35,618 nucleotides of DNA from an uncultured virus (IMG/VR IMGVR_UViG_2124908030_000016) (Duplodnaviria > Heunggongvirae > Uroviricota > Caudoviricetes). The stretch lies in the IMG/VR virus record IMGVR_UViG_2124908030_000016. One strand, 5' to 3'. Below, in pieces: positions 8,401-34,172 of the stretch. The first letter of the stretch is position 1. The number at the start of each line of letters is the position of its first letter. The notes beneath the pieces were generated by a model. The model was not told the origin of the DNA, made no database searches, and was given only the letters and a program-made list of their open reading frames with translations. The translations under genes and the position numbers were made by a program.

Positions 8401-8477
8401 CCGTTCGTGCGCGACACAGCAGTAGTCCTCTCGGCTCCCTCCGGTCGCCGGTAGAACTATCTACGTGTCGCGCATAC
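8401..8477 (+). repeat. 77-78 bp hairpin element, copy 1 (subtype alpha)
   Basis: CCGTT..TGCGCGACAC-A-GCAG-TAGT..ACTA-T-CTAC-GTGTCGCGCA-TAC. Confidence 0.95.
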
Positions 8478-8498
8478 AGAAGTAGTGAAGTAAAACCA

Positions 8499-9647
8499 AT
8501 GATGGAAACCGTACCCGTTCAGACAGAAAAGCAGCTTGCGAATGATGAACAGCTCGTCGAATACGAGGAAGCAACCGCACAGTCGCGGGCGAGTCAAGAG
8601 GAGGTCGCAGAGGACTGGCTGCGACTGGTCTACGCAGACAGTAATCAGTCAAGCAGGCGTGCCGGTGTCATCTACACATCGGGATACGAGGCAGTACAAC
8701 ACGAGAATCCACGAACCGGTCGTGTCGAGTGGAACCGGCAGGTCGAAGCCGTCCGAACGGAGACGGGCCTCCTTCTGACGAACAATAACTTCGATTCCAC
8801 TGGAGGGCGGTTTGGCTCGAGTCACCGCAACCAGGTTCGTCGTGTGCTCTATCGCAGAAGCCGATCGTGGGAGCCCGACATCCCAGAGTACACGCAGGTG
8901 AGTATGGACCTCCGACTGGTCGAGGAGTTCATCAGTCAATTCCAGATGGACGTCGAACTCGAGGAGATAGCCCACATCAAGAACGAACGAGCGGACTATC
9001 TAATCACGTTCACCGACCACCAGCAACTGTTCATCGGAGACGATGATACAGCCCGGCGTGATCGCGATGGCCGATTCGGATTCATCGTCGACGGCGGTCG
9101 TGCGCCCAGCATCGAGGACGCCCTCAATATGCTGGTCCCCGACCCAGTCCAGCGCGCTCAGGCCAACGGCACGGACGTCGAGCGTCAGGGTGAGTGGTTC
9201 CTCATCCCAGCAGACGACGGCCCCGAGAGTCGCATTCAGAAGCCCGGAATGGGGTCCAAGCCCTACGGAGCAAGCCCGCTGGACAGCCACGTTCCACGAG
9301 ACTGGGCAACGATCAACAACGAACAGGTCATCATCGACGAGATCGCACACCAGGACGACCTCGAGCTCGCCGGTGACACCACACCCGAGGAGTTCGCAGA
9401 CGAGATCGACACACTGCAAGAACTGCTGGAGTTCTTCAAAACGGGGCAGTATCACTACCGCTCGGAGTTCGGCATCGAGGAACTCCGTGATCGACTCCAG
9501 GACGAGCTGTTCATCCGAGGCTCGGTCCGACACCGCGACAACGAGCACTACCAGCTCACCCTGGACGACTGGCATCGCGCGTTCACTCACGGCGTCGAGG
9601 TCATCACCGTCGACGACACTTCGTTGATGCGAGTGCGCTTCGACTGA
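8499..9647 (+). CDS. hypothetical protein with phage-type RQG(E/D)W..H..H..EH motif
   Basis: VERQGEWFLIP..SHVP..RGSVRHRDNEHYQLTL; 382 aa. Confidence 0.75.
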   Translation: MMETVPVQTEKQLANDEQLVEYEEATAQSRASQEEVAEDWLRLVYADSNQSSRRAGVIYTSGYEAVQHENPRTGRVEWNRQVEAVRTETGLLLTNNNFDSTGGRFGSSHRNQVRRVLYRRSRSWEPDIPEYTQVSMDLRLVEEFISQFQMDVELEEIAHIKNERADYLITFTDHQQLFIGDDDTARRDRDGRFGFIVDGGRAPSIEDALNMLVPDPVQRAQANGTDVERQGEWFLIPADDGPESRIQKPGMGSKPYGASPLDSHVPRDWATINNEQVIIDEIAHQDDLELAGDTTPEEFADEIDTLQELLEFFKTGQYHYRSEFGIEELRDRLQDELFIRGSVRHRDNEHYQLTLDDWHRAFTHGVEVITVDDTSLMRVRFD

Positions 9648-9652
9648 ACACA

Positions 9653-9874
9653 ATGACAGACTGGTACGTCGAGGGACCAGGACACACTACTTGGGGCCCG
9701 TACACCTACGATGACGCCGAGGTCATTGCCCGTGCCTACGCACACGAGGCAGACGGTGAGCGGTCAGTCGGACTGTTCGCACACCAGACAAGCGTGTACT
9801 CGAAGATCTACGACGAGGAACTGCCACCAATGCCAGACACAACTGACGTGTCACTGCCCTGGGCTAACAGATGA
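9653..9874 (+). CDS. hypothetical protein
   Basis: 73-aa ORF coupled to the next gene. Confidence 0.65.
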   Translation: MTDWYVEGPGHTTWGPYTYDDAEVIARAYAHEADGERSVGLFAHQTSVYSKIYDEELPPMPDTTDVSLPWANR

Positions 9875-10392
9875 GAGTCTGTGAGAGCTGCCAGGAGCGC
9901 TACGACGACGAGGACCTGATATACGACCCAAACGTCATCACCTGTCGATGGTGTCGCGTGCCGTGGGACATCACTGACTACCCCGAAATACTGGGAGAAA
10001 ACGAGGTGACTGTTCAAGACCGCGGTGGGTACAGGAGGATCAGGAACAAGATTCGGATTGCTGGCATCGACGAGACAGCACACGCAATCTACGTCGACGA
10101 GATCGAGAACCGGCTCACGAAGATCGCTCCGAAGCACGGAGCCCGGTCACAGTACAGTCGAGATCCAACAGGAAAGCGATCGGTGTCGTATCAATCGCCA
10201 CACCCAGAGCCGAGGAGATACAGGACGTGGCCAACACTCCCAAACGGCGACCACCTCGTCGTCGTCGGCGCACAGAAGGGAGCGCAAACGAGCACGCTGC
10301 TGGAAACGTGGATGGGCGAGTGGCACGAACTGAACGCGTTCTACGAGCGACAGTGCGACGTCCCCGACGAGACAGACGTCGTCGAACTGTAG
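9871..10392 (+). CDS. hypothetical protein with N-terminal Cys4 ribbon
   Basis: CESC..CRWC; ATGA overlap. Confidence 0.7.
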   Translation: MRVCESCQERYDDEDLIYDPNVITCRWCRVPWDITDYPEILGENEVTVQDRGGYRRIRNKIRIAGIDETAHAIYVDEIENRLTKIAPKHGARSQYSRDPTGKRSVSYQSPHPEPRRYRTWPTLPNGDHLVVVGAQKGAQTSTLLETWMGEWHELNAFYERQCDVPDETDVVEL

Positions 10393-10468
10393 CCCCGTAG
10401 GGACGACGATTCGATGTCAGACAGATCAATTCCGCAGTCCTGACTAACTGATATGGCTAGCAAACAGC

Positions 10469-11248
10469 TTGCAACGACGACCAGCGACGGCTGTACTGTC
10501 CATCCACAGAGATGGACCGGTGCGACACACGACACCGAAAGGCTACGAGTTTGCCGACCGCGTCGAAATCAAGCAGATAACAAAGCAAACGGCAAACGAG
10601 GTCTACAGACATCACCACAGTTACTGTGGGCCGATTACTGGTCCGGTGTTCAACGAGGGCTCACACGGAATCTACTACCGAGACCAGCTCTGTGGTGCAA
10701 TCTCGTACAACTTCGGGCTGGGAAAGTGCCTCAGTCTGACGTTCACCGAGAACGGAATCACAAGAGATCAAAGCAACGGTATCACCAAGAACATCTGTAA
10801 AGGCGGAAACATCGTCGAGGTCGATCGTATCTGCATCGGAGTGGACTTCCCGAATTTGGCCAGCTGTGCGTTCGCAAAGAGCCAGGATACGTTCATCCGC
10901 AACAGTCGGCAGGGCCCAACGTTCGACACGACCACGAGCAACGTCGACTTCCTGATGACGTTCGTCCGTATCGACCACACTGGGTCGATGATTAAAGCAC
11001 TCTCAGACAAGGGCTGGGAGCTCGTCGGCGTTCAAGAGCCGGACGCAAGCGCATCAAACCGAGATGCACGCGAAATCAACGAGTGGGGCAAGACCCGCTG
11101 GATAAGACCAATCGGAGACGCCCACAGTCGAGTTCGAGACTGCCCGTGTCCCGACGAGAAGATCATCGAACACGGCAAGTCGTACTTCTGTACAAACTGC
11201 CGAGCCTGGTACGGCCACCTCGGCCACGACTGGGCCCCCAACAACTGA
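10469..11248 (+). CDS. Mom-family (GNAT-fold) DNA adenine-modification-like protein
   Basis: HHSY, GIYYRDQLCGAISY, EVDRICI, NLAS, DHTGSMIKA..GWELVG follow the Mom/XF1762 motif order; true start may be ATG 10453 with a frameshift. Confidence 0.6.
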   Translation: MQRRPATAVLSIHRDGPVRHTTPKGYEFADRVEIKQITKQTANEVYRHHHSYCGPITGPVFNEGSHGIYYRDQLCGAISYNFGLGKCLSLTFTENGITRDQSNGITKNICKGGNIVEVDRICIGVDFPNLASCAFAKSQDTFIRNSRQGPTFDTTTSNVDFLMTFVRIDHTGSMIKALSDKGWELVGVQEPDASASNRDAREINEWGKTRWIRPIGDAHSRVRDCPCPDEKIIEHGKSYFCTNCRAWYGHLGHDWAPNN

Positions 11249-11326
11249 CCGTTTCTGCGCGACATCGCACTAACCCGCGTCGACTCCCGATAGTCGTCGA
11301 CGGAGTTATGTGCGTGTCTCGCATAC
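11249..11326 (+). repeat. hairpin element, copy 2 (subtype beta)
   Basis: Starts directly after TGA 11248; TGCGCGACAT..TAAC..GTTA..GTGTCTCGCATAC. Confidence 0.95.
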
Positions 11327-11345
11327 TTATCAGGTAGCGAAGAAA

Positions 11346-11747
11346 ATGAACAACAGACAGCAGAAGATCGTAGAGGCACTCGATCAACTCTCGATGCCAG
11401 AGCCACCAGACGTCGATGATGGGCTGTGGTACTGTGACCGAACGAGTCCAGACTACTGGCGATACAGCGTACCAGACGTCGACGGACCAGCCAAAGACGT
11501 CTGGCTCGAGACCGAGGTCGGCCGAGACAATGCCGGCGTACTCCAGGTCAGGGCTGATGTCGTGCTGTTCGACATACAGGGACTGTTCGAGCTCGAACGG
11601 CGAGCAATCGTCAGTCAGCAATTCGACGGTCACCAACCCCGAGAACAAGCGTTCATCCTGAACGCCCCGACCTATCAGCAACAGATCAACGACGGCGCCA
11701 TCGAATTCTACGAGCAGGCAGTCAGCAACGCACACACCCACCGATGA
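11346..11747 (+). CDS. hypothetical protein
   Basis: First ATG after the repeat; acidic. Confidence 0.7.
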   Translation: MNNRQQKIVEALDQLSMPEPPDVDDGLWYCDRTSPDYWRYSVPDVDGPAKDVWLETEVGRDNAGVLQVRADVVLFDIQGLFELERRAIVSQQFDGHQPREQAFILNAPTYQQQINDGAIEFYEQAVSNAHTHR

Positions 11748-11935
11748 ACTACGAGTACATCATCTCCGAGAACGATGCAGAGAGCGCACGAGAAGCATTC
11801 GCCGAGACGCGGTTCGGCGACAACGAAGTCACTGACACACACGTCTACGACGAGAACGTGACGGGTGTGTTCTTCGAGTCAGACGAAGCGATCGACCACC
11901 GACTGGTCATCTGTACCGACGAACTGGAGGACTGA
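11744..11935 (+). CDS. hypothetical protein
   Basis: Coupled on both sides; acidic. Confidence 0.7.
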   Translation: MNYEYIISENDAESAREAFAETRFGDNEVTDTHVYDENVTGVFFESDEAIDHRLVICTDELED

Positions 11936-12540
11936 TGCACCAGCTCATCCGCGTCGTCGTGGCAACGAGAAGCAACGAAGAAGCAACTAGTATCGCCGGA
12001 GGCCTGTTGAAAGGCAGCGACGCACCACTGTTCGGCCCGTTCGACTACGGCACAACGATGGACGCGGGTGGACGATGGTCTGACTCGATGCCCGAGGTCG
12101 TCCAGGAGACTGGTTCGATTCGCGCCGACACCGAGAAAGGTCGCGAGCTCATCGAAACTGCCTGGACCAAGCAAAACAAGCGACTCAAGCGTGAGTTCGA
12201 CGCCCTCAAAGAGGCCTTCGAAAACGACGTCACCTTCGAGCAAGTCCTCAGCGACGCACGAATCGAAGGTGTCGACATCGAGCAGTACAACCCACTGGGA
12301 CTAGCACAATCCGAAGACGAGCTCTCCGAGACATACTCAACCAGCATCAGGTACGCAATGAGTGAACTCGGCTCGTACAGAGGGCCTGCAATCAATCTGT
12401 ACAATCAGTACGGAACTGGCATCCGACAGCCAGACCAGTACCGAGGACTCATCAGCAATATCGAAGAGGGGACCGGGCAGTACGAAGAACTCTCCGAAGA
12501 GAGTGACTGGTACGTCGCACCCGTCGACGTCCACTACTGA
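11935..12540 (+). CDS. hypothetical protein with FDY..GGRW and terminal VDVHY motifs
   Basis: 201 aa; coupled on both sides. Confidence 0.75.
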   Translation: MHQLIRVVVATRSNEEATSIAGGLLKGSDAPLFGPFDYGTTMDAGGRWSDSMPEVVQETGSIRADTEKGRELIETAWTKQNKRLKREFDALKEAFENDVTFEQVLSDARIEGVDIEQYNPLGLAQSEDELSETYSTSIRYAMSELGSYRGPAINLYNQYGTGIRQPDQYRGLISNIEEGTGQYEELSEESDWYVAPVDVHY

Positions 12541-12836
12541 TGGACGTCGAAGAGCTCCCGTATGATAATTTCCCCGAGTGGTACCCAGACGAGGCCTACA
12601 GCTGTCTGCTCTGTGGACAACAGGGAAACAGTAAGCACAGCGCGTCAATCAACGAGTCCGCACTCTCTCCGTGGAGTAACCTCGCAGACGTCGATCCTGA
12701 AAAGCACGTCGCGTGTCTGCGAGTGCTCAAACAGCTTGGAGAAGGGGAGATCCATCCAAGCTGTCTCAACGAGCTCGTCGATAACGGCTCAATGGTCGAC
12801 CCGTTCGTGTTCGAGATACGCTTCAAATCGAAGTAA
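12540..12836 (+). CDS. hypothetical protein (CxxC, HxxC)
   Basis: TGATG coupling; stop abuts repeat copy 3. Confidence 0.65.
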   Translation: MDVEELPYDNFPEWYPDEAYSCLLCGQQGNSKHSASINESALSPWSNLADVDPEKHVACLRVLKQLGEGEIHPSCLNELVDNGSMVDPFVFEIRFKSK

Positions 12837-12913
12837 CCGCTGGTGCACGACACGGCACTAATCCTTCCGGCTCCTGATAGTCACCGGAAGAAATATGTGC
12901 GTGTCGCGCATAC
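12837..12913 (+). repeat. hairpin element, copy 3 (subtype gamma)
   Basis: Directly after TAA; TGCACGACAC..CTTCCGG..CCGGAAG..GTGTCGCGCATAC. Confidence 0.95.
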
Positions 12914-12928
12914 CTTAACCTGACGTTA

Positions 12929-13636
12929 ATGAAAGTAACCTACATCAACGATACAGTCGCAGAGTTCGTCCGCATCCCGGACATCACCAATCACCAGGAG
13001 TTAGCCATCGTTGGCTATCTACTGTTCCAAGGCCCACTGGACGGAACGAGTCTCGGTGGACTGTTAGACTCCAAACGTACGGACGTCCAGGAGAACATCG
13101 AGCAGTTCAAAGAACGAGAGCGCAAACTCGAGATCAAGAAGATTCACGAGTACATTCGTGACCCACGGGTGTATGTCGTCTCGCGGTTCGAGGACGAATA
13201 CGACACCAACGTGCTCGAGTCCGAACGGACAGGCAACTACAAGATCGTCCGTGACGACGAAGTACGGCCACTGTACCGAGATCCAGCGTACAACGAGCAC
13301 CTCCGGGTCGAGGCACAGTCGGTCTACAAAACCGAGGATGGAGACTGGAACGAGCGCAAACTCCAGACAGTTGCAACAGCCAGCTTCCAGGTCGACGAGG
13401 CGTTCGACGCTCTCGGTCGCTGGGCCGGTGACGACGTCCGTCTCGTCATCGACCCCGAGAGCGACGACCTCGACGGTACGGAGATCACAGACAGTGTCAC
13501 CAGAGAGATGACGAGGGTGCTGCCCGACCAGTTCCTGGTCAATGGCACCGAGGTCCTCACGCCCGATATGGTAATGACTTCGGGTGACGGTGACGGTGGC
13601 GAGAGCGAACAGGAACCTCCAGAGCTGTTCCAGTGA
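12929..13636 (+). CDS. hypothetical protein
   Basis: 235-aa acidic ORF starting 15 nt after the repeat. Confidence 0.75.
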   Translation: MKVTYINDTVAEFVRIPDITNHQELAIVGYLLFQGPLDGTSLGGLLDSKRTDVQENIEQFKERERKLEIKKIHEYIRDPRVYVVSRFEDEYDTNVLESERTGNYKIVRDDEVRPLYRDPAYNEHLRVEAQSVYKTEDGDWNERKLQTVATASFQVDEAFDALGRWAGDDVRLVIDPESDDLDGTEITDSVTREMTRVLPDQFLVNGTEVLTPDMVMTSGDGDGGESEQEPPELFQ

Positions 13637-16037: not shown

Positions 16038-16039
16038 CG

Positions 16040-16246: not shown

Positions 16247-16463
16247 CCCACGCACCAACATCCAGGTCAGCATCCAACCACAACCTGGCTTCGGTGGAAA
16301 GTACCACACATTCCAATACGTCGAGCGAGTCCATACCGTCGACGCCGAGCTCGTCGTCAAGTACGCACCACCAGAGGGGACCTACGAGGTCCTGGAAGAG
16401 CGCTTCGACGCGAAGACGATGGAACTCTGCGAAGTAACGACCGTCGAACAACCCCCGCGGTAA
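16233..16463 (+). CDS. hypothetical protein
   Basis: MRTSNPRT..; stop abuts repeat copy 4. Confidence 0.6.
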   Translation: MRTSNPRTNIQVSIQPQPGFGGKYHTFQYVERVHTVDAELVVKYAPPEGTYEVLEERFDAKTMELCEVTTVEQPPR

Positions 16464-16541
16464 CCGTTTCTGCGCGACACGGCACTAATTCTCCCGACGT
16501 CCCTTCGGTCGTCGGAAGAAATATGTGCGTGTCCCGCATAC
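16464..16541 (+). repeat. hairpin element, copy 4 (subtype gamma)
   Basis: Directly after TAA; TGCGCGACAC..CCGACG..CGTCGG..GTGTCCCGCATAC. Confidence 0.95.
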
Positions 16542-16564
16542 TTCAGACACGGAGTTAGCAACTG

Positions 16565-18289
16565 ATGTCTACAGATGCACGTCGCACTCGAATCGAAGGT
16601 ACGGATGATCTGTTGCGGTCTGTCATCGTTGACCAGGCCAGCGACATCGAACACTCGTGGCGCGAACTGGTCCAGAACGGACTGGACTCGCCATCGGCAA
16701 CCCGCGTCGAACTCGACTGGGACCACGACAAGACGGTCTACCACGACAACGGTGGTGGGGTCGACCTCTCGGCCCAGCGCGGACAGGACCTACTGACCAA
16801 CCTCGGCGAGTCTTCGAAGAATGCCGAGGACGACGAGAGCATCGGCGAGTTCGGCATCGGCAAGGGCCAGTACCTGGCCAAGGGTCGAACAGCACTCATC
16901 GACGGTGACGACGCGCTCCTGTTCGACGTCCAGGGCGAACTGGGGCTGGACGTCGTCTGCGTCGACACTGACGACCTGGTCGAGCAGGCCAACGAGCTGA
17001 CCGGTAACGGCAAACTCAGTCAGTACGTCCAGGACGCCCTCGAGACGTACGGCCGGAACGGGATGACCATCGTCCTCGACCACTACGGCGACGAGGTTCC
17101 CGACTTCGACTACAAGTGGAACAGTCACCAAAGCGCCATCGAGAAGCGGTTCAAGTTCGCCGAGATCGCGACTGCGACGAAGGTGTACGTCAACGACGAG
17201 CGGATCAGCGACTTCTCACCGGGTGGGGAGGTCGAACACAAGTACACCCACGCCGAGGAGTTCAGCGACCCCGCGACTGACCTCGAGCGCGCCCACATCG
17301 CCGTCGGCCACAATACGGGTAGCGACCTGGGTGTCTACTCCAACGGCGTCTACGTCTGCGACGTCGAAAGCCGAGGACTATCCGGTGTCATCGTCACCGA
17401 GGGCAACCTCCGGCTCAACTTTGCGCGCAACGAGATCAAGTCCGGCTGCCATCGCTTCACGGCCATCGAAAACCGTCTCGAGGAGATCCGCCTCGACCTC
17501 TACTCCTCGATGCCGGACAACCGGCTCACGCTCTCGTCGCGCGACTTCCTGGCAGAGCAGCTACTCGATCACGGCAACGAGGAGTTCGTCGACACGGAGC
17601 TGTTCAAGACCATCAACGGTGACCACGTCTCGCTCGCAGACGTCAAGAGCCGGAGCAGTGTCGCCAGTTCCCGTCCCGGCAAGGGTGCCGGTGACAAACT
17701 GTCCGAATCCCTCGGGATGATCGTCCTCAGCGAACTCGATGACGCCACCGGGCGCCTGCTCGAGGTCATCGAGGTCGACGAAGTCAAGAGCAACACCGAG
17801 GACGACCAGAACAGCGGGACTGAGGTCGACATCGACATCGACGTCGAGGACGCAACGGAGAAGGCCGAGTCGATGGGACTCCACACCAGCTACGAGCGTT
17901 TCGGGATGGGCGACCTGAAGCCCGTCCAGCGCACCAAGCTGGCGATCGCCCGTGAGATGGCCGACCGCATCGAGGACTACGACCGCGAGATCTACTACGG
18001 CGAGTCCGACGTCGCCAAGTCCTGGACCGACGCCAGCACCTACGTCACCATCACAGACTCCTCGACGTCCAGCAACGCCTGGCAGGTGTACGCCCCCGAG
18101 CTGTGGCGACAGCTGGTTCACGAGATGGCTCACGTCACCTCCTCGAAAAAGGAGTCCGACCACGGATACGAGTTCAACCGACGCTACCGGAATCTGAACG
18201 ACGACCAGCACGAAGTTCTCTCAGAGGTCATCCAGGACATCCGCGACCGTGGGCTGGACGCCGTCAAGCAGAACGCTCCCAAGTACTGA
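16565..18289 (+). CDS. GHKL (Hsp90/MORC-like) ATPase with C-terminal HExxH metallopeptidase-like motif
   Basis: RELVQNGLDS (N box), DNGGG (G1), GEFGIG (G2), GMT; C-terminal LVHEMAH..HGYEF. Confidence 0.85.
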   Translation: MSTDARRTRIEGTDDLLRSVIVDQASDIEHSWRELVQNGLDSPSATRVELDWDHDKTVYHDNGGGVDLSAQRGQDLLTNLGESSKNAEDDESIGEFGIGKGQYLAKGRTALIDGDDALLFDVQGELGLDVVCVDTDDLVEQANELTGNGKLSQYVQDALETYGRNGMTIVLDHYGDEVPDFDYKWNSHQSAIEKRFKFAEIATATKVYVNDERISDFSPGGEVEHKYTHAEEFSDPATDLERAHIAVGHNTGSDLGVYSNGVYVCDVESRGLSGVIVTEGNLRLNFARNEIKSGCHRFTAIENRLEEIRLDLYSSMPDNRLTLSSRDFLAEQLLDHGNEEFVDTELFKTINGDHVSLADVKSRSSVASSRPGKGAGDKLSESLGMIVLSELDDATGRLLEVIEVDEVKSNTEDDQNSGTEVDIDIDVEDATEKAESMGLHTSYERFGMGDLKPVQRTKLAIAREMADRIEDYDREIYYGESDVAKSWTDASTYVTITDSSTSSNAWQVYAPELWRQLVHEMAHVTSSKKESDHGYEFNRRYRNLNDDQHEVLSEVIQDIRDRGLDAVKQNAPKY

Positions 18290-19842: not shown

Positions 19843-19859
19843 CCGCACCGCTTTCCTGA

Positions 19860-19937
19860 CCGTTGTTGCGCGAGACAGCCATAGCTCTGTCCGACTCCGT
19901 CCCGTCGTCGGAAGAACTATGTTCGTCTTGCGCATAC
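19860..19937 (+). repeat. hairpin element, copy 5 (subtype delta)
   Basis: TGCGCGAGAC..CATAG..TCCGAC..GTCGGA..CTATG..GTCTTGCGCATAC. Confidence 0.95.
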
Positions 19938-19949
19938 GTAATACTGAAG

Positions 19950-21525: not shown

Positions 21526-21548
21526 ACCGCGTCATACCGCTGACCGCA

Positions 21549-21626
21549 CCGTTGTTGCGCGAGACTGACATAGCTCTATCCGACTCCGTCCCGTCGTCGG
21601 AAGAACTATGTTCGTCTTGCGCATAC
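21549..21626 (+). repeat. hairpin element, copy 6 (subtype delta)
   Basis: Differs from copy 5 at only about 3 positions. Confidence 0.95.
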
Positions 21627-21657
21627 TACAGAATGCAGTCAATAACAGTTCAGTCTA

Positions 21658-22518
21658 ATGAGTGATGAAGAACCGGCACTCAGTGAGATGGGGGCCAACG
21701 AACGAGACGCAGCGTCAACTATCAACCTCGACGTCTCGGGGACGGTCGGGCCAGACTACCTCGGCCAGCAGACCACGAACGTCGACGGTCACTTCGCAGA
21801 CCGGCCCGGTGTGCAGAGCCGACGACCAGAGCAAAGTCACAGAGACGACCCACAGATCGCCCGGATGGACACCGGTGAGGAACTGCCAGTGCTCCTATCG
21901 TCGTCGATGAGCGCCGATCCGTGCGAGGGCACCCAGGGGAGTTACACCCAGATCGTCGAAGGCGAGTGCAACCGGTGTGGCTACGACCGACTCGTCCAGA
22001 CGGTCGTCACGCTACCCGGCGAGCGCCGTCACAAGTGCAACGCCTGTAACGCCATCCAGAAGCCTCGCTCGGACTCGGGCTACCGGATGCCAGAGACGTC
22101 GCGTGAGCGGGCCCAGAAAGCAAAGGAGCGAGGCGAGAAGGTCGGGCCGGCTGGCAGCCTCGGCGAGCTGTACGTCCAGTCTGACCGGCGTGTCGAGGCA
22201 ATCAGTGACAAGTCGATCACGCAGTTCTGGGAGGGCGACATCCTCGAGCTCCTCGAGGCCGGTCTGGACAGTGGCCACGTCGCACCCGAAGACGTCATCG
22301 GCCTGTTCGACTGGGGCCGTCTGAAAGATTGCCGACTGGGCCAACTCAGGCCCAAGCAAACCGGACTGGACGGGTTCGGCTGGGTCGGACTGGCAATGAA
22401 GGTCACGCCAGACCACGTCGGGGTTCAGGAGCGAGACCGGCGTGTGCTCCTGGCCGGCACCGACGACGAACAGGCACGCAAACAAGAGCTGTGCGGACTG
22501 CTGTTCGAAGACCAATGA
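21658..22518 (+). CDS. hypothetical protein with zinc ribbon
   Basis: CNRCGYDR..CNAC. Confidence 0.7.
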   Translation: MSDEEPALSEMGANERDAASTINLDVSGTVGPDYLGQQTTNVDGHFADRPGVQSRRPEQSHRDDPQIARMDTGEELPVLLSSSMSADPCEGTQGSYTQIVEGECNRCGYDRLVQTVVTLPGERRHKCNACNAIQKPRSDSGYRMPETSRERAQKAKERGEKVGPAGSLGELYVQSDRRVEAISDKSITQFWEGDILELLEAGLDSGHVAPEDVIGLFDWGRLKDCRLGQLRPKQTGLDGFGWVGLAMKVTPDHVGVQERDRRVLLAGTDDEQARKQELCGLLFEDQ

Positions 22519-24223: not shown

Positions 24224-24232
24224 CACAGCTAT

Positions 24233-24310
24233 CCGTTCGTGCACGACATAGCCATAGCTCTATCCGACTCCGTTCCGTCGTGGGACGAACTATGTTCGTG
24301 TCGCGCATAC
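24233..24310 (+). repeat. hairpin element, copy 7 (subtype delta)
   Basis: TGCACGACAT..CATAG..CTATG..GTGTCGCGCATAC. Confidence 0.95.
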
Positions 24311-24455
24311 TGTGGGTTACAGATGTCGGTCGAACCAGCACCAACCGAACAGCAGAAAGAGAGAACACAAAGAGACCAACACTAATGACAGAAACGTACA
24401 CAGTCGGCATCGACGACCTGTTCTACGAGTCCGAGGACATCGAGGTCGAAAACTG

Positions 24456-24659
24456 ATGCCCTGCTTCGAACAGTTCCCCGACGAGATCGACGAAGAGAGA
24501 GACAGACCAATCGGAGCCATCGGGATCAACTTCAGCTTCCCGACCGACGTCCGAGAGGACGAGACGCCCAAAGAGGCGGTCCAACGCTGGATCGACGAAC
24601 AGAGCGACGAAGAACTCGCCGAGTTCGTCCGCGAGCGGACCTGGGAGTACTGGTACTGA
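24456..24659 (+). CDS. hypothetical acidic protein (preceded by 23-aa ORF 24385-24456)
   Basis: MPCFEQFPD..; stop abuts repeat copy 8. Confidence 0.6.
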   Translation: MPCFEQFPDEIDEERDRPIGAIGINFSFPTDVREDETPKEAVQRWIDEQSDEELAEFVRERTWEYWY

Positions 24660-24737
24660 CCATTTCTGCGCGACACGGCACTAACCCGCATCGGCTCCCG
24701 ATAGTCTCCGATGGAGTTATGTGCGTGTCGCGCATAC
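24660..24737 (+). repeat. hairpin element, copy 8 (subtype beta)
   Basis: Directly after TGA; TGCGCGACAC-G-GCAC-TAAC..GTTA-T-GTGC-GTGTCGCGCATAC. Confidence 0.95.
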
Positions 24738-24757
24738 TTCAACCCGAAGTCAGACAG

Positions 24758-24910
24758 ATGAAGCTAGTTAGTCACGGTCACGTCACGTTCGACGAATCGA
24801 GCGGTGAACGCATCGAAGAGCTGGTCTGGGACGCGCTCAGGGACGCGCCCGGTATCACGGCGACCTGGTACGAGGGAGAGCTGATCATCCTGAAAGACAA
24901 AGCCAAATGA
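24758..24910 (+). CDS. hypothetical 50-aa protein
   Basis: First ATG after the repeat; ATGA overlap. Confidence 0.6.
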   Translation: MKLVSHGHVTFDESSGERIEELVWDALRDAPGITATWYEGELIILKDKAK

Positions 24911-28644: not shown

Positions 28645-28712
28645 AACAGGACCACCCCGATGGCGAAGTCGTGCCCGACAGCGAGATTGAACGTCGCTCG
28701 ATCAACGACTAA

Positions 28713-28790
28713 CCGTTCCTGCGCGACACCGCAGTAGTCCGTATCGCTTCCCTCCGGTTAGCGATAGAACTATCTGCGTGTCACGCATAC
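28713..28790 (+). repeat. hairpin element, copy 9 (subtype alpha)
   Basis: After TAA; TGCGCGACAC-C-GCAG-TAGT..TATCGCT..AGCGATA..ACTA-T-CTGC-GTGTCACGCATAC. Confidence 0.95.
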
Positions 28791-28797
28791 AGTCAGA

Positions 28798-29223
28798 ATG
28801 CGAATGTCAGACTCAAACTACCAGACGTACGACCCGTGCCCACACTGTGGGTCAGAGGGACCGTTCCGACAGACAATCAGTCAGCAGGAAGATCTCGAGG
28901 TCGAAGACGGCGCAGTCACCGATATCGTTCCAGACGGATCAACGTACACAGTCACCGAACTGTTCTGTGTCGGATGTGACCAGGAGATCCTCGAAAACTC
29001 CGCACCGTCGCTCGACAGCGAGGTCTGGACAGAGTTCCAGATAGGAGCCGAGGGACTCAGTGTCACGCTGTATCGAGGCACCGACAGGCCAACCGTGCTC
29101 GACGAGATGTGGCAGGCCTGGGCAGAGGTCGTTCCCGAAGGCATCGAGCCAGGCCACTGGCAGATCATCAGTGAGGCGCTGAACGGCCGAGAACACGAGC
29201 GGTTCATCCTCGAAGATAGATGA
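28798..29223 (+). CDS. zinc-ribbon protein
   Basis: DPCPHCGS..CVGC. Confidence 0.7.
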   Translation: MRMSDSNYQTYDPCPHCGSEGPFRQTISQQEDLEVEDGAVTDIVPDGSTYTVTELFCVGCDQEILENSAPSLDSEVWTEFQIGAEGLSVTLYRGTDRPTVLDEMWQAWAEVVPEGIEPGHWQIISEALNGREHERFILEDR

Positions 29224-29615
29224 GTGAAATCGGCGACCTGATCGAAGGCGCACAGGACCCAGAAACAGTGTTCACGCTCACTGTCGAGATGGCAATTGCA
29301 GACCTGACAGCGTACATCAAACATCACCCAGACAAGATCGAAGAGCTCGGTGGCGTCAGCGACTGGCTCATCGACGTCGCATTGAGCACCGTCATCGAAC
29401 CAGTCCTCAAGGAGTACGGATCCACCACACACACCCAGATCATCGAAGGACAACTGGAGAACCGTGGGATGGAAGCACTCAACGCCAGAAACGGCCTCCA
29501 ACAGTCACTGCTGCTCGACGCATCGATCGCTGTCAGGAACGAGGCAGAGATCCGGATGAACAACCGTCGAGTCATCGACACCGGCCGAACGGAGCGATAC
29601 GGATGGAACAACTGA
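29220..29615 (+). CDS. hypothetical protein
   Basis: ATGA overlap. Confidence 0.7.
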   Translation: MSEIGDLIEGAQDPETVFTLTVEMAIADLTAYIKHHPDKIEELGGVSDWLIDVALSTVIEPVLKEYGSTTHTQIIEGQLENRGMEALNARNGLQQSLLLDASIAVRNEAEIRMNNRRVIDTGRTERYGWNN

Positions 29616-30001
29616 AACGAGCAATCGTCGACGCACCCACGGACCGAGTTGCATTCGACCTCGCTGTCGAAGCACTCGTCCTCAAGGTCACAGAGATAGT
29701 CGAAGAACAGCGAGCGTACCTCGAAGCCAACCCGGACGACTTCGACCACACGGAGGCACCATACGGGTTCCACCCCGAGGATCCAGATGAAGTACTACAG
29801 TCCGGGGACCACGGTGCAGTGATGGGTGCCATCAGCGATTTCGCCCGTCAATTCGATACTGACCACCTCGTCCGCATCGTCGATGGCCGAATCGTCGAGA
29901 CCGGCTTCGAGGTTGTCGGCAGTGGGCCGAACGACCTCGAAAACGGAGATTCGGATTCGAAGCAGAGATCTGGCTCCGCAACGAGCTGGAGCTCCGACTG
30001 A
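29603..30001 (+). CDS. hypothetical protein
   Basis: Acidic; overlapping. Confidence 0.65.
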   Translation: MEQLKRAIVDAPTDRVAFDLAVEALVLKVTEIVEEQRAYLEANPDDFDHTEAPYGFHPEDPDEVLQSGDHGAVMGAISDFARQFDTDHLVRIVDGRIVETGFEVVGSGPNDLENGDSDSKQRSGSATSWSSD

Positions 30002-30052
30002 TGGACCGCAACGTCATCGAGATCTCGCGGGACCCCTACCGAGTCGACAGAG

Positions 30053-30277
30053 ATGAGTGACACTACAAACGTGACGAAGAAGGTCATCCAGATCGCTGGA
30101 TTCCCGACGAGAGTCGCACACCCCGAACACGGCGAGATACTGATCGTGGACGCGACGCAGACCCACGCGTACGGCAAGTGGTACTACGCCTACGTCGTCC
30201 CCGGCGAGGACGACGGCGGACTGATCCGCGACAACACGACCGAAGTCGCCATCCTGGAGGAGCCTCTCGATGAGTGA
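30053..30277 (+). CDS. hypothetical protein
   Basis: 74 aa. Confidence 0.65.
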   Translation: MSDTTNVTKKVIQIAGFPTRVAHPEHGEILIVDATQTHAYGKWYYAYVVPGEDDGGLIRDNTTEVAILEEPLDE

Positions 30278-30446
30278 CAAACACAACTGCCTCGCGAACG
30301 CAACACCCGTGATAGACAGGCAGATCGACGGCGAGCCGATACTGTCGGCAACGCTCGGCGACCAGGTCGAAGTGTACGTCTCCTGTCGGAAGTGCGGACA
30401 GGACCTGACACTGTCGTACGGATACGTAGACAGTGAAACCCGATGA
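30270..30446 (+). CDS. 58-aa HxC..CxxCG microprotein
   Basis: MSDKHNC..CRKCGQ; overlaps both neighbours. Confidence 0.55.
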   Translation: MSDKHNCLANATPVIDRQIDGEPILSATLGDQVEVYVSCRKCGQDLTLSYGYVDSETR

Positions 30447-30946
30447 GCATCATCGGCTTCCTGCACGCCGAGAACACGGATCGACCCGTCGCACCAAGGC
30501 GGTCCAGAATGGGCGGGTCCTACACAGGAACCGGATACGCCGGCTGGATGGTCGAAGACGCTGTCATCGTCTGCAACTCGTGCGCTGAAGCACGGTACAA
30601 CTTAGACGACGCGCACCCGGTCTTCACGGACAGCGAGACCAGGTACCCAGGGACAACCTGTATGGATCACACCGACTGTGAGGCGTGTCCTGACCAGCAA
30701 GGTGACGCACTACTCCCAGAGACAATGTTGGTCAACGAAGGCGACCTCTTCCACGTGTCCGACCGAGAGATGTGGAGCCTGGACGTAGACAGCAAGGCCC
30801 CTGAGTCGGCCGTCAGTGAGGTCCTACGGCAACGGGACCGAATACGGTATGAAGCGCCCGACTGGTTAGCTGACACGCGTGCAGGGCACGTCTCGGACCA
30901 GCCAAACGTCCCAGAGATGGGATCGAGGTACACACAAAATGAGTGA
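30443..30946 (+). CDS. hypothetical Cys-rich protein
   Basis: CNSC, CMDH, CEAC. Confidence 0.65.
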   Translation: MSIIGFLHAENTDRPVAPRRSRMGGSYTGTGYAGWMVEDAVIVCNSCAEARYNLDDAHPVFTDSETRYPGTTCMDHTDCEACPDQQGDALLPETMLVNEGDLFHVSDREMWSLDVDSKAPESAVSEVLRQRDRIRYEAPDWLADTRAGHVSDQPNVPEMGSRYTQNE

Positions 30947-31003
30947 CAACATCAACATCCAGATACGAGAGGAACTGGCGCGCGAGCTCGAGGTGCGTGT
31001 CAA

Positions 31004-31399
31004 ATGACCGACGACACGTTCGACGCCGACGAAGAGAGCGTGACAGACGCCTGGGAAGGCGCGTACATCTACACGAGCTGGGGCTACAACCGTACTACCG
31101 TCAACTTCGCACAGATCGTCGACGTCTCCGGCTCGGGCAAGACAGTCGTCGCACGGCTGGTCCACGCCGACGTCGTTGAGAACGAGCGAGGGTCACAGCA
31201 GATGCGACCAGATGCAGAGCAGTACGGAGACGCGTTCCGACTTCACGTTCGAGCAGTCCGGAGCGACCCGTCGTTCCGTGGGTCGTACCCGTTCGCGACC
31301 GGCGACGAGGACGACGGCACCCGGCTGGACAGCTTCTTGCCGTTCGATAACAGCCCCGACAAGACCGTCCACCAGACGCCTCCGAACCACGGCCACTAA
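31004..31399 (+). CDS. mobile-element hypothetical protein with SWGY..T.VNF.Q motif
   Basis: YTSWGYNRTTVNFAQIV. Confidence 0.7.
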   Translation: MTDDTFDADEESVTDAWEGAYIYTSWGYNRTTVNFAQIVDVSGSGKTVVARLVHADVVENERGSQQMRPDAEQYGDAFRLHVRAVRSDPSFRGSYPFATGDEDDGTRLDSFLPFDNSPDKTVHQTPPNHGH

Positions 31400-31484
31400 C
31401 GAGGACCACATCGCCCGCCTCAGCCTCAGCCAGTCGATGCTAACCAACAGTGCCGGAAAGAACTGGCCTGTGTTGGTTAGTGAA

Positions 31485-31562
31485 CCGTTCGCGCGCGTCA
31501 GCGCACTATCCCTTCTGACTCCCTACTGGTCGTCAGAAGAAATATGTACGCGACGCGCGTAC
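31485..31562 (+). repeat. hairpin element, copy 10 (divergent gamma)
   Basis: CGCGCGTC..GCAC-TAT..CTTCTGAC..GTCAGAAG..ATA-T-GTAC..GACGCGCG-TAC; outer stem compensated. Confidence 0.9.
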
Positions 31563-31596
31563 GACACACGATGCCGAAACTAAACAGTAAACACAG

Positions 31597-32043
31597 ATGA
31601 CACACAGACCCTTCGAGTTCGAGAACCCACCAGCGTGGCCGAATCCAAAGTGGACACCGAAGCAGGAACAGAACTGGATCGACCACATCGAGCCGGTCTA
31701 CAGTCGCATAGAAAGCGAGCTCGGTCGACGAATCTTCAGAGCTGTCTGGCGCCCGAAGAAGCGTGGTGACGGCTGGATGAAGCGCGAGCACGTCAAGCTC
31801 GGGACTCCAGAGGACTACGTCGAGGAGAACGTCAGCGACCTGTTCACGCCGATGACCGACATCACCTCGGTGATGATGCGCCAGGTCGGCCGGTACGACG
31901 TCAGCCGAGAGACGCTGGACGAGGCCGTCGATGCGATCCGGAAGGCCCGTCTCAAGCACCTGGCCGACAACAACCCCGAGCGAGCACGCCAACTGCTCGC
32001 GAACACCGCGTACGAAGCAAGTCTCTACGGAGTCGGGAGATGA
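31597..32043 (+). CDS. hypothetical protein
   Basis: 148 aa after the repeat. Confidence 0.7.
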   Translation: MTHRPFEFENPPAWPNPKWTPKQEQNWIDHIEPVYSRIESELGRRIFRAVWRPKKRGDGWMKREHVKLGTPEDYVEENVSDLFTPMTDITSVMMRQVGRYDVSRETLDEAVDAIRKARLKHLADNNPERARQLLANTAYEASLYGVGR

Positions 32044-32162
32044 ACTGTAAGCACTGTGGAGGCCGACTCTCGATCGGCGACGTCGCAATGATCATCTCAC
32101 GACGACAAGAGAAGATCTGCACGAACTGCATCGCAGAGACAACACGGAGACGGTCAAAATGA
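32040..32162 (+). CDS. 40-aa Cys4 microprotein
   Basis: MNCKHCGG..ICTNCIAE; ATGA overlaps. Confidence 0.6.
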   Translation: MNCKHCGGRLSIGDVAMIISRRQEKICTNCIAETTRRRSK

Positions 32163-32296
32163 ACAACTGTGATTTCTGTGGTCGTGAAATCGACGACTAC
32201 GAGGCACGAGTCGGCGCAGAGTTCCACGAAGACGACGAACCAATCTGCACGAAGTGCATTGCAGAGGAGATGATGAACGAACTCGGGGCCCGCTAA
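32159..32296 (+). CDS. 45-aa Cys4 microprotein, similar to the previous one
   Basis: MNNCDFCG..ICTKCIAE; TAATG coupling. Confidence 0.6.
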   Translation: MNNCDFCGREIDDYEARVGAEFHEDDEPICTKCIAEEMMNELGAR

Positions 32297-32706
32297 TGGA
32301 CCTCACACAAGAGCGACACGAGCCAGCTGTCGGTGACATCTACGAGACAAGCCGTGACGACGTCTACCAGGTGCTGTACATCGACGATCAGATGGTTCTG
32401 CTCCGCGATTCGGACGAAGGTCGAAACGGTGACAACATCCACCGGATGGAGCGCCGTGTGAACTTCACGAAAGAGGTCGATGCAGGATTCTTCGAGCACC
32501 AACCTGACTCGAGTCTCGATATGATGGACGAGGCAGAGCGTGATTGGACTGACGTCGACCTGATCGGTGCCAAAACAGCAGAGAACCTGTACGATGCCGA
32601 GTGCAAGACGGGCCTCGACATCCAACAGGCCGATGACGACGAACTTCTCGAGGTCAGTGGCGTCGGTATGGCCGGCCTCCAGAACCTGAAAGAGTTCACA
32701 GGATGA
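32296..32706 (+). CDS. C-terminal tandem helix-hairpin-helix protein
   Basis: VDLIGAKTAENL..DDELLEVSGVGMAGLQNL. Confidence 0.75.
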   Translation: MDLTQERHEPAVGDIYETSRDDVYQVLYIDDQMVLLRDSDEGRNGDNIHRMERRVNFTKEVDAGFFEHQPDSSLDMMDEAERDWTDVDLIGAKTAENLYDAECKTGLDIQQADDDELLEVSGVGMAGLQNLKEFTG

Positions 32707-33065
32707 CACATCCAGACATCGGAAATCTGACCGAGACCCAGCGAGAGCGCATCGTCCGCGACGTGATCAATCACAAGAGCGAGTCGCGAGCGATCAGCAA
32801 GGAGACGTACAGAGAGGAAGACATCGAGCGGGACAGAGAGCAGTTCAGCACGATGAGCGACGACGAGTTAGTCACGTTCTGGTCTGGGCAGGTCGGCGAG
32901 TGGATCTGTTCGATCGGTGGCGAGTACCCCTCGTTCATCGAGGCGTGGGAAGACGTCAGAGGCGAGTACGAGCATCCAGCGGAGTGGCAACTGGACGTCC
33001 TGCTCGACCACGGTGACGTCAACTACGGCTACCAGTTCCCCGTGTACGAGATGCCCTACAACTGA
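32703..33065 (+). CDS. hypothetical protein
   Basis: ATGA overlap. Confidence 0.7.
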   Translation: MTHPDIGNLTETQRERIVRDVINHKSESRAISKETYREEDIERDREQFSTMSDDELVTFWSGQVGEWICSIGGEYPSFIEAWEDVRGEYEHPAEWQLDVLLDHGDVNYGYQFPVYEMPYN

Positions 33066-33244
33066 TGCCAACCAAACCAAAGACCCTCGCAGAGAACCTG
33101 AAGAAGAAGAATCCGGACGCGAACATCGACCGAGAGTCGACGTGCAAGGACTGTCGGTCCAGAATCGCTCTCGAAGAACTGTACTGGTACAAGCGTCAGT
33201 CGTGGCGCTGCACTGATTGCCATCCGCACTTCAACGAACAGTGA
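33065..33244 (+). CDS. 59-aa Cys4 microprotein
   Basis: CKDC..CTDC; coupled on both sides. Confidence 0.6.
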   Translation: MPTKPKTLAENLKKKNPDANIDRESTCKDCRSRIALEELYWYKRQSWRCTDCHPHFNEQ

Positions 33245-34092
33245 CGACTCCAAACATCGACGACATCCTCGACAGCATCGCATCGCTCGCAGACACACCA
33301 GATGACGAAGACGGCCCATACGACCCAGTACTCGTGTTTGCAGGAGAGGACCTCCCAGACTACAGAGAGAAGCTCCCAGCAGACAACGACCTGATCACCA
33401 AGCACGGCGAAGTTGGCGACGTCAAGTTCTTCGAATACCACCCCCGGATGTGGCACTTCGACGAGGGCGCGTTCGTCCTCGCCGACGGGGACCTGGACTA
33501 CGACGATTACGACTACATCCCGGAGTTCGAGGTCACCATCGAGCCCGACGACTACGTGGCGTACCGACTGGTCGCGCCGATGCTCCACGGCGACGAAGAC
33601 CTGTCGTTCACCCTAGAGTTTAGTGTCGGGGACGAACTGGAGCTTGATATGCCGTTCCGACACAGCCGGTTCAGCCGGCACGAACTCAAGGACCCGGACC
33701 ACACCGGGGAGTTCGTCCCCGACATCGACGAGGACTACGAGGCGTTCGTCGAGTACGTCGCCGAGCGCAACCGACTGGTCGACGGCGCCTCGCCCTACCA
33801 CCTCACGGGAGTGATAGTCTCGGGCATCGAGGACATCGGGTACAACAGCGAGAGCCAGAAGTTCGCGCTCACCTACGCCTGTGAGCCGTACCTGCCGGGC
33901 TCCGAAGAGCGCCTCTGGCCCAGGGACGTCCTCACGGCATATCCCGACTACCCCATCGAGCTCGAGAACAGTGACGTCGACAGCGTCTACGACCTCGCCC
34001 GAGCGGTACTCGCGAAAGACATCGAGGCGTACTACGAGCGCAACAACCTCTACGACTCCAACGACGACCTGATCCTCGTCGACCCGCAATAA
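33241..34092 (+). CDS. hypothetical acidic protein
   Basis: GTGA overlap; 283 aa. Confidence 0.75.
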   Translation: MTTPNIDDILDSIASLADTPDDEDGPYDPVLVFAGEDLPDYREKLPADNDLITKHGEVGDVKFFEYHPRMWHFDEGAFVLADGDLDYDDYDYIPEFEVTIEPDDYVAYRLVAPMLHGDEDLSFTLEFSVGDELELDMPFRHSRFSRHELKDPDHTGEFVPDIDEDYEAFVEYVAERNRLVDGASPYHLTGVIVSGIEDIGYNSESQKFALTYACEPYLPGSEERLWPRDVLTAYPDYPIELENSDVDSVYDLARAVLAKDIEAYYERNNLYDSNDDLILVDPQ

Positions 34093-34095
34093 CCA

Positions 34096-34172
34096 CCGTT
34101 CCTGCGCGACACAGCAGTAGTCCTTCCGGCGCCCTTCGGTTGCCGTTAGAACTATCTGCGTGTCACGCATAC
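34096..34172 (+). repeat. hairpin element, copy 11 (subtype alpha)
   Basis: 3 nt after TAA; TGCGCGACAC-A-GCAG-TAGT..ACTA-T-CTGC-GTGTCACGCATAC. Confidence 0.95.

Follow-up and report, generated by a model that had tools for sequence, protein, structure and literature searches.

Promoter early stem-loops (PeSLs) of T4-type phages combine, in order, the stop codon of an upstream gene, a sigma-70 promoter overlapped by a terminating stem-loop and the ribosome-binding site and start of the downstream gene (PMC2839356). They are repeated intergenic cassettes of ORFan-rich regions and are also points of exchange (Arbiol et al. 2010, PMC2839356; Comeau et al. 2014, PMC4122927). In the haloarchaeal virus HF2, intergenic repeats were identified as promoters by reporter assay and primer extension (2021, PMC8707807), and their division into distinct classes suggests temporal control by virus factors. 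In this work, we describe an element of ~83 nt that is present in 11 copies in a 35,618-nt stretch of DNA from an uncultured virus (IMG/VR record IMGVR_UViG_2124908030_000016; the whole stretch is referred to below as the window). Each copy folds as a long imperfect hairpin and is located at a boundary between gene clusters. We tentatively favor a reading in which these repeats are composite, PeSL-like gene-boundary cassettes, probably a combined stop-and-start signal with a promoter in the 3′ arm and a hairpin that forms in read-through sense RNA; we infer the promoter, and likewise that the hairpin is transcribed and acts in RNA.

Very little is known about how archaeal viruses organize early transcription, and the case tested in haloviruses consists only of the unstructured repeat promoters of HF2. 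The literature searched on intergenic hairpin repeats of haloviruses and archaeal viruses describe the HF2 repeats and a pleolipovirus origin hairpin (PMC13107129), and no element of the present kind.

Architecture and placement of the elements

What the sequence shows directly is the position, polarity and fold of the elements and the compensatory changes among them. All 11 copies lie between 8.4 and 34.2 kb on the + strand, where they were located with a motif anchored on the 3′ arm; the minus strand has none. They fill true gaps between tightly packed + strand gene clusters, within which neighboring starts and stops overlap by a few bases, and their polarity is that of the genes in 11 of 11 cases. 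The modules that they delimit hold 1–10 genes. For six copies (2, 3, 4, 5, 8 and 9), the stop codon of an open frame of at least 33 codons is located exactly 10 nt before the stem (window positions 11246, 12834, 16461, 19857, 24657 and 28710), and for copy 11 such a stop codon is found 13 nt before it. If the mRNA contains the hairpin, a ribosome terminating at this codon would thus arrive at the base of the stem. The 5′ flank that contains the stop codon is conserved and T-rich (T[AG]ACCGTTnn), and an A-rich leader of 8–35 nt separates the element from the next start codon.

Each copy folds as an imperfect hairpin of 67–68 nt with 27 pairs. At the base is a 10-bp outer stem (TGCGCGACAC/GTGTCGCGCA), beyond which a single base is left unpaired; a helix of 4 bp then leads to a bulged T on the opposite strand. 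Above these are six more pairs in which C·A is frequent, a small bulge, a 7-bp inner stem and a loop of 11–12 nt whose edges are conserved (TCC...GTY). The outer stem and the bulges are constant, and the inner stem and loop vary, forming four or five subtypes. The original prediction, which was made from the sequence of the same DNA, described recurrent bulges outside one subtype (delta), and the alignment agrees: the outer stem is followed by an unpaired column 21 and, four pairs further in, the T in column 65, part of an invariant TAT, is bulged. Copies 5–7, which make up the delta subtype, have a 3 × 3 internal loop where the others have two single bulges. The hairpin alone folds at −23 to −38 kcal/mol as + strand RNA, and all copies fold far better than their dinucleotide shuffles (RNA z scores between −2.1 and −7.5 on the + strand and between −6.1 and −10.2 on the minus strand).

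Selection on pairing

The paired substitutions from which selection on the fold had been proposed are present in our alignment. GCAC/GTGC in copies 2, 3, 4 and 8 is exchanged for GCAG/CTGC in copies 9 and 11, and TAAC/GTTA in copies 2 and 8 for TAGT/ACTA in copies 1, 9 and 11; GAGAC/GTCTT occurs in copies 5 and 6, and copy 10 has CGCGCGTC/GACGCGCG in the outer stem. Five inner stems differ in sequence yet still pair. For comparison with chance, we used shuffles, which ignore the relatedness of the copies. Standard pairs account for 86.2% of the 297 cells versus 76.5 ± 1.1% in shuffles, 13 of the 27 pairs are changed on both sides versus 6.0 ± 1.4 and the covariation score is 0.282 versus 0.113, each of these values being reached by 0 of 500 shuffles. 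The observed value for further pair types is reached in 15 of the 500. Shifting the structure by 1–3 columns leaves 19–50% paired cells and 0–2 pairs changed on both sides.

Compensated changes are also evident between close copies. Copies 2 and 8, which are 88% identical, differ by two of them (G-C to A-T and A-T to G-C), and further compensated pairs separate copies 1 and 9 (two), 9 and 11 (two) and 3 and 8 (four). Selection on the fold is thus well supported, both by pairing and both-side changes relative to shuffles and by the compensated changes between close copies.

The individual copies

A covariance model built from the 11 copies scores 78.7–95 bits on them. Copy 1 (8399–8480, hairpin 8408–8474; 91.7 bits) has a folding energy of −35.0 kcal/mol and is followed by an ATG at 8499, 22 nt past the TAC of the element. 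Copy 2 (11247–11329, hairpin 11256–11323; 93.2 bits) has the TGA of the upstream ORF (open reading frame) 10 nt before its stem and its next ATG at 11346, and copy 3 (12835–12916, hairpin 12844–12910; 86.2 bits) has an upstream TAA at −10 and an ATG at 12929. Copy 4 (16462–16544, hairpin 16471–16538; 87.6 bits), also with a TAA at −10, precedes the ATG at 16565 of a 574-aa GHKL-like gene. The delta subtype comprises copy 5 (19858–19940, hairpin 19867–19934; 84.8 bits), in which the 3 × 3 internal loop replaces the two single bulges, copy 6 (21547–21629, hairpin 21556–21623; 86.3 bits), with its next ATG at 21658, and copy 7 (24231–24313, hairpin 24240–24307; 78.7 bits), the weakest folder (RNA z −2.1 for the + strand and −6.1 for the minus strand).

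Copy 8 (24658–24740, hairpin 24667–24734; 93.3 bits), the close match of copy 2, has a TGA at −10 and its next ATG at 24758. The highest-scoring copy 9 (28711–28793, hairpin 28720–28787; 95 bits) has a TAA at −10 and an ATG at 28798, only 8 nt after the element. Copy 10 (31483–31565, hairpin 31492–31559; 79.3 bits) is the one with the outer stem altered on both arms. Copy 11 (34094–34175, hairpin 34103–34169; 87.5 bits) has its upstream TAA at −13 and its next ATG at 34182. All are on the + strand.

The only further window match to the covariance model is weak (18 bits) and lies on the minus strand at 2505–2568. We also note that a unique long hairpin is located at 2505–2590 (AACCGCTACG...CGTAGCGGTT; −46.6 kcal/mol, z −5.3), followed by TTTTT, GGAGTG and an ATG at 2588; an upstream stop codon falls inside its 5′ arm, and it looks like a hairpin-plus-T-run terminator. 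A different structured repeat is found upstream of the 11-element region, at 9–139 and 1565–1696, where 93%-identical copies of a 117-nt segment contain a perfect stem of 14–16 bp (CGCTTAAGGGTACC/GGTACCCTTAAGCG) that encloses about 55 nt, and each is followed by a second small hairpin.

Folding of the two strands

In the 27-pair structure, 251 cells are Watson–Crick, 5 are G·T, 21 are C·A or A·C and 20 are other, nine of the last arising from forcing copies 5–7 into the common register. The original prediction had counted about 18 C·A versus about 5 G·T mismatches on the + strand, a C·A mismatch becoming a G·T wobble on the minus strand, and had assigned about 11 of the C·A to one near-invariant position. 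The excess stands, at 21 versus 5, but that position contributes 7 cells; the figure of 11 is reached only with the adjacent column (4 cells), the two being columns 29/61 and 30/60. Calculated folding energies point the same way, with the minus strand better in 11 of 11 copies under both RNA and DNA parameters. The mean energies for the minus and + strands are −41.4 versus −33.6 kcal/mol (RNA) and −21.7 versus −19.2 kcal/mol (DNA), and the minus-strand z scores are the more negative. As thermodynamics, the minus strand as the better folder is correct and consistent, with several sources, and with 11 related copies it is not statistically secure.

The 21 C·A cells lie in nine columns and the G·T cells in three. 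A one-sided binomial test gives P = 0.07 against a 1:1 expectation and P = 0.15–0.29 against the 1.3:1 to 1.7:1 ratios that base composition, whether of the arms or the region, predicts. When the two adjacent shared columns are repaired in silico, the RNA advantage of the minus strand falls from 7.8 to 4.4 kcal/mol (about 3.4 of 7.8). The C·A cells in these two columns are mostly inherited among the copies, and because much of the bias sits there, it does not constitute independent evidence from 11 copies. Repair of all wobble-type cells leaves a minus-strand advantage of 2.6 kcal/mol (RNA) and 1.2 kcal/mol (DNA), since pyrimidine–pyrimidine mismatches and loop edges become purine–purine on the minus strand. 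Either an antisense RNA or additional constraint on the 3′ arm would account for such a strand bias.

Two interpretations of the better-folding strand can be considered. The first, which extends that of the original prediction, is that the template (minus) strand folds as DNA, in a cruciform or as single-stranded DNA (ssDNA), and serves as a structured promoter, like those of the phage N4 virion RNA polymerase or Frpo of F, or as a priming site for complementary-strand synthesis. The advantage of the minus strand under DNA parameters in all copies, the part of it that survives the in silico repair and the excess of C·A over G·T cells are as this model would have them, and the minus-strand loop edges, GAC...GGA for TCC...GTC, could add tandem G·A pairs. 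The hairpin is also suitably placed, immediately preceding each gene cluster on the strand that serves these genes as template, and it would be in no RNA at all if upstream transcripts end at the T-rich flank and downstream ones start past the hairpin. Set against this, the DNA-parameter advantage is small (2.6 kcal/mol) and partly inherited, and the mismatch bias loses significance once composition is considered. No gene for an RNA polymerase, primase or integrase turned up in the Pfam scan (39 + strand ORFs) or the PHROGs scan (45 ORFs), which leave ~88 kb of the contig outside them. The distant relatives described below have TATA-type promoters before the gene that they share with the window, a stem of 27 bp with a loop of 11 nt is unlike the 5–7-bp stems and 3-nt loops of N4 promoters, and a 123-kb double-stranded DNA genome offers no obvious long-lived single strand. 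On balance, a DNA-level hairpin is unlikely. A more specific version, in which an extruded template-strand hairpin with G·T wobbles and possibly tandem G·A pairs is recognized by transcription or priming machinery, seems very unlikely to us; in that version the variable apical stems would be class-specific address labels, and archaeal viruses would, if it is true, gain their first known structured-DNA promoter or single-strand initiation signal.

The second interpretation is that the fold is that of a minus-sense RNA, with long counter-transcripts crossing the early region and the hairpins processing, stabilizing or stopping them. Here the relevant difference is the mean 7.8 kcal/mol by which the minus strand is better as RNA in all copies, with z scores down to −10. 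The variation at columns 29/61 and 30/60 is also of the expected kind, a pyrimidine opposite A on the + strand corresponding to a purine opposite U on the minus strand, as where G·U is tolerated. There are precedents in haloarchaea, in that HF2 is reportedly transcribed on both strands over about 70% of its genome (PMC8707807) and the same paper cites a haloarchaeal RNase with cleavage at the ends of RNA duplexes. The antisense promoter and transcript are, however, putative, and the invariant TAT and the asymmetric flanks (5′ ACCGTT and 3′ CATAC) are tied to the sense orientation and to the starts and stops of genes. With the statistics of the strand bias as weak as they are, we consider an antisense role improbable.

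A candidate gene-boundary cassette

The reading that we favor, a composite cassette acting on sense transcription, would have four parts: (i) the stop codon of the last upstream gene, inside the T-rich flank; (ii) the 67–68-nt hairpin, constant in its 10-bp outer stem, fixed in its bulges and variable in its inner stem and loop; (iii) within the 3′ arm, a purine-rich tract followed by the invariant TAT (GAAnTAT) and then CGCATAC and (iv) the A-rich leader of 8–35 nt ahead of the next start codon. The host RNA polymerase would start the downstream unit from the 3′ arm, which would serve as a B recognition element (BRE)/TATA-like region. The hairpin would form in transcripts reading through from upstream and could act there as an attenuator, a processing site or a protector of the 3′ end. 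Recognition of the constant outer stem and the bulges would fall to a virus factor; units would be assigned to classes by the variable apical part.

The promoter part of this model can be compared with known motifs. Haloarchaeal promoters contain a BRE (CGAAA), a TATA motif (TTWT) and a WW element at about −10 (PMC4983044). In the elements, the TAT formed by the bulged T follows GAAG, GAAC or GAGT and is itself followed by CGCATAC; GAAnTAT and CATAC thus resemble the BRE, TATA and −10 motifs of that description, the match being a weak one (PMC4983044). The TATA motif of HF2 starts at about −26 (PMC8707807), and with this spacing the predicted start would be about 4–8 nt past CATAC. The fourth base after CATAC is A in 8 of the 11 copies. 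The window contains 26 A/T-rich 8-mers, three of which are GAAGAAATATGT of copies 3, 4 and 10, and the region has no canonical A/T-rich box elsewhere.

Several observations count against the cassette. The sequence taken as TATA-like is a weak one (CTAT, ATAT or TTAT), and only 3 of the 11 copies are notably A/T-rich. The hairpin cannot be a classical terminator, as it has no T-run after it on the + strand. In all 11 copies the + strand folds less well than the minus strand, which a role in sense RNA does not explain, and the two arms are equally conserved (15.95 versus 15.53 bits), so that there is no extra constraint on the 3′ arm overall. The start site, 3′ end and processing site of the cassette are putative, and the argument from relatives is one of analogy rather than synteny because only one gene is common to them.

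T-runs of another kind, TTTCTTTTTTGT and CCGTTTTCTTTCC, stand directly after stop codons at 4259–4290 and 6253–6285 (A/T-rich 8-mers at 4276 and 6274). They look like ordinary archaeal terminators and lie outside the part of the window that contains the hairpin elements.

Two additional ideas about translation were considered and abandoned. Pairing of the stop-codon flank with the leader in a closing helix, which would couple translation across the hairpin, was promising by eye but was rejected, since cognate flanks (−7.35 kcal/mol) have no advantage over non-cognate flanks (−7.53 kcal/mol; permutation P = 0.60). Shine–Dalgarno motifs as proof that the first genes are internal cistrons were dropped, such motifs being sparse both after the elements and elsewhere.

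Gene content of the window and the question of recombination

We take the source to be part of an uncultured haloarchaeal virus or virus-like element of ~123 kb. A hypersaline-lake origin is indicated by the presence of the stretch in four DNA runs of one study, and the protein cluster of the 574-aa ORF itself sits on a contig of 123,245 bp. Our analysis covers the 35.6-kb window, with ~88 kb of the contig outside it, and all 11 copies come from this one contig. The G+C content across the window is 56–65%, with a strong A>T skew on the + strand; N-masked stretches at 2097–2116, 3724–3743 and 5045–5871 make the genes across them unreadable. Nearly all plausible genes are small and on the + strand, and their products are very acidic (D+E about 20%, K+R about 9%). 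Pfam matches were obtained for 6 of the 39 + strand ORFs and PHROGs family matches for 9 of the 45 ORFs scanned, 7 of the latter only to families without a known function. A DUF4326 protein encoded at 146–1066 has tblastn matches in 15 phage records, all of them haloarchaeal viruses (e.g. phiH, PhiCh1, SH1, PH1 and HCIV-1). The GHKL-like 574-aa ORF (16565–18289) has 42 homologues in a protein collection (metagenomes), two of them with the Pfam domain HATPase_c_3 (PF13589); the best homologues, at 50–53% identity, are encoded on metagenome contigs.

A paralogy test among 67 ORFs returned 3 weak pairs only, and the genes flanking the elements are unrelated to one another. Because the flanking genes are not paralogous, the element has been kept or copied independently of its neighbors.

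Another possibility is that the elements are primarily recombination sites that shuffle gene modules, either as portable homology in the manner of PeSLs or as folded ssDNA recombinase sites in the manner of attC. The layout is attC-like in its constant outer stem, variable paired center, fixed extrahelical bases, single polarity and better bottom-strand fold, and the region is made up of ORFans. Shuffling mediated by PeSLs is documented (PMC2839356, PMC4122927), and the GHKL-like gene occurs in three otherwise unrelated neighborhoods, each time beside boundary repeats and, in one relative (L019, below), bracketed by them on both sides. But no integrase or transposase family was found in the Pfam and PHROGs scans, the modules contain 1–10 genes and are not single cassettes, and the copies, which are 70–92% identical with only short identical runs, would be poor substrates for homologous exchange. 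The four DNA runs show no rearrangement at the elements: two joints that go back along the window, and those loose ends at elements that were compared by eye with the window flanks, correspond to cross-alignment of other repeat copies, and no new element variants were found in these runs. We regard recombination sites as quite unlikely.

In two of the runs (X3 and X4), a contig matches the window up to 24220, just before copy 7, and then continues in unrelated G+C-rich sequence; another X4 contig continues through copy 7. This break is possibly a strain difference that starts at the edge of an element, or it may come from a related genome.

Relatives and searches for the element elsewhere

The 574-aa ORF is the only gene common to the window and five large viral contigs, where it has 24–41% identity and its neighbors are otherwise unrelated. 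In each relative, a repeated boundary element of that virus's own stands ahead of it. The IMG/VR contig L019 (40% G+C) has a tRNA-like minihelix repeat of ~60 nt, with 13 copies on the gene strand and 0 on the other (positions 700–13000). Each consists of a covarying acceptor-like stem and a T arm with GGTTCGATTCC, and a start codon follows after one more small hairpin. The GHKL-like gene lies between two of the copies. ARAGORN reports one tRNA-like gene only near these minihelices, at 6876–6969. The L019 repeat is strand-specific and would act in RNA, and it looks like a tRNA-type punctuation of viral transcripts.

In two other relatives, L020 and L021, the GHKL-like gene is preceded by a T-run motif after the stop codon (CCGTTTTTGCGCG; CCGTTTTTGCGCGCC), which resembles the 5′ flank and first stem bases of the window element. 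A TATA-like box, a small hairpin and the start codon are located about 70–90 nt past the post-stop motif, an arrangement that fits host-type promoters in at least one lineage of relatives. Three viruses have three different repeated boundary elements around the same gene, which fits a general role as boundary cassettes. We also note two intergenic families in L020 (8000–20000) and L021 (9700–10000): the post-stop-codon motif CCGTTTTTGCGCGCCGCCCGC (7 copies), which shares CCGTTT.TGCGCG with the 5′ flank of the window element, and a second family (6–7 copies) with a TATA-like box, CCTACCCTGAGTAG and then a GGGA(C)AAAAATCCC mini-hairpin.

The element itself was not recovered elsewhere. Exact-pattern scans gave 1 match in viral contigs, 8 in a collection with one genome per species and 9 in metagenome contigs, all of them single chance matches in unrelated records that form no clusters; these collections do not include the window's own record. 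The covariance model rejects the viral and metagenome matches, the 8 genome-contig loci not having been put to it, and it finds no copy in five related viral records (best E 0.09). Close relatives sought among viral contigs through two other window ORFs were not found, and a phage collection yielded nothing for the repeat region or the 574-aa ORF with megablast, blastn or tblastn. Rfam, including the CRISPR repeat families, has no match at gathering score in the window, and a CRISPR-repeat mimic or a known Rfam family was set aside as an identity for the element. Around copies 4, 7 and 8, Rfam searches up to E = 10 gave chance-level matches of at most 14 bits, well below gathering scores, of which MIR5638 is the only one to overlap an element (copy 4).

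These searches bear on the possibility that the elements belong to a self-spreading, selfish family of palindromes (REP/REPIN- or MITE-like), whose pairing would be kept by the copying mechanism and would have no function for the virus. The elements are dispersed, intergenic, imperfect palindromes with unrelated flanking genes, and similar copies can be far apart (copies 1 and 11, 87% identical, by 25.7 kb; copies 2 and 8, 88% identical, by 13.4 kb). Against this, the 11 copies all have one orientation and keep a set distance to the stop and start codons, and their conserved flanks are asymmetric. No target-site duplication was seen, by eye only, no transposase was found among the scanned ORFs, and no true copy is present in the five related viral records or, single chance matches aside, in the three collections. 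A selfish origin of this kind is thus highly improbable. As a known class, a REP- or MITE-like palindrome was rejected on orientation, on the lack of copies in the five related records and on the visual search for target-site duplications.

Comparison with known systems

Several classes of structured nucleic acid share features with the element. Like integron attC sites, Frpo and the early promoters of phage N4, it is an imperfect palindrome with extrahelical bases, one polarity, a better bottom-strand fold, a variable center and conserved ends. Sites of the attC type have outer R″/R′ boxes ending in AAC...GTT, an integron integrase nearby and single-ORF cassettes. The identification was rejected: the outer stem TGCGCGACAC/GTGTCGCGCA is without AAC...GTT ends, no integrase family is present among the scanned ORFs, the modules hold 1–10 genes and no cassette movement was seen. 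Promoters of the N4 type are short hairpins (5–7-bp stem, 3-nt loop) read by a virus-encoded RNA polymerase, and this class was likewise rejected for a hairpin of 27 pairs with a loop of 11–12 nt in a window where no polymerase family was found. The archaeal bulge-helix-bulge site has two 3-nt bulges on opposite strands with a 4-bp helix between them. The element has a similar geometry (a 5′-strand bulge, 4 bp and a 3′-strand bulge), but its bulges are of 1 nt and copies 5–7 have the 3 × 3 loop, and this candidate was not retained either.

Hairpins that define or protect mRNA ends are known from phage T7, where RNase III processes them between early genes, and from the Mimiviridae, where 3′-end palindromes follow the 'hairpin rule'. 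Both sets share with the element the form of long imperfect hairpins between co-directional viral genes, but its sequence conservation is much higher than theirs. We know of no RNase III in haloarchaea, and none was seen in the window.

The HF2 repeats are the closest in host, being intergenic sequences of a haloarchaeal virus at the heads of transcription units (early and middle ones in HF2; PMC8707807). They differ in being 58 and 29 bp long and A/T-rich, and the available text of that report does not describe them as hairpins (PMC8707807). The signature motifs CTTTAAGT (beta) and CCCTTTAC (class II) have no match in the window, and the gamma motif CGTCTNNTAGAG has two one-mismatch matches (2.8 expected by chance), neither of them inside an element.

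The element also differs from PeSLs. PeSLs have bacterial sigma-70 boxes and short G/C stem-loops at variable positions, whereas the present element belongs to an archaeal host, has a promoter that is only inferred and contains a single long 27-bp hairpin with conserved sequence, fixed bulges and covarying inner stems. Exchange, which is known at PeSLs, was not seen at these repeats in the four DNA runs of one study.

The element is short and could be tested in Haloferax reporter systems. The consistently better fold of the non-coding strand raises the question of whether the signal is RNA or DNA, sense or antisense. Each cluster boundary of the window is marked by the same conserved 27-bp hairpin, with its bulges and covarying pairs, and in distant relatives this role is taken by structured repeats of other kinds, in one by tRNA-like minihelices and in another by a T-run with a TATA-like box and a small hairpin. 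These arrangements suggest a general design of large haloarchaeal viruses in which gene modules are 'punctuated' by structured boundary signals, much as T4-type phages have their PeSLs and giant viruses their hairpin signals. As with PeSLs, the repeated intergenic unit has one polarity, occurs in an ORFan-rich region and is bounded by an upstream stop codon and a downstream start codon, and a stable stem-loop, here the 27-bp hairpin with the invariant TAT in its 3′ arm, would overlap or adjoin the promoter elements. By analogy, then, the layout seen here may be that of the PeSLs (PMC2839356), transposed to an archaeal host.

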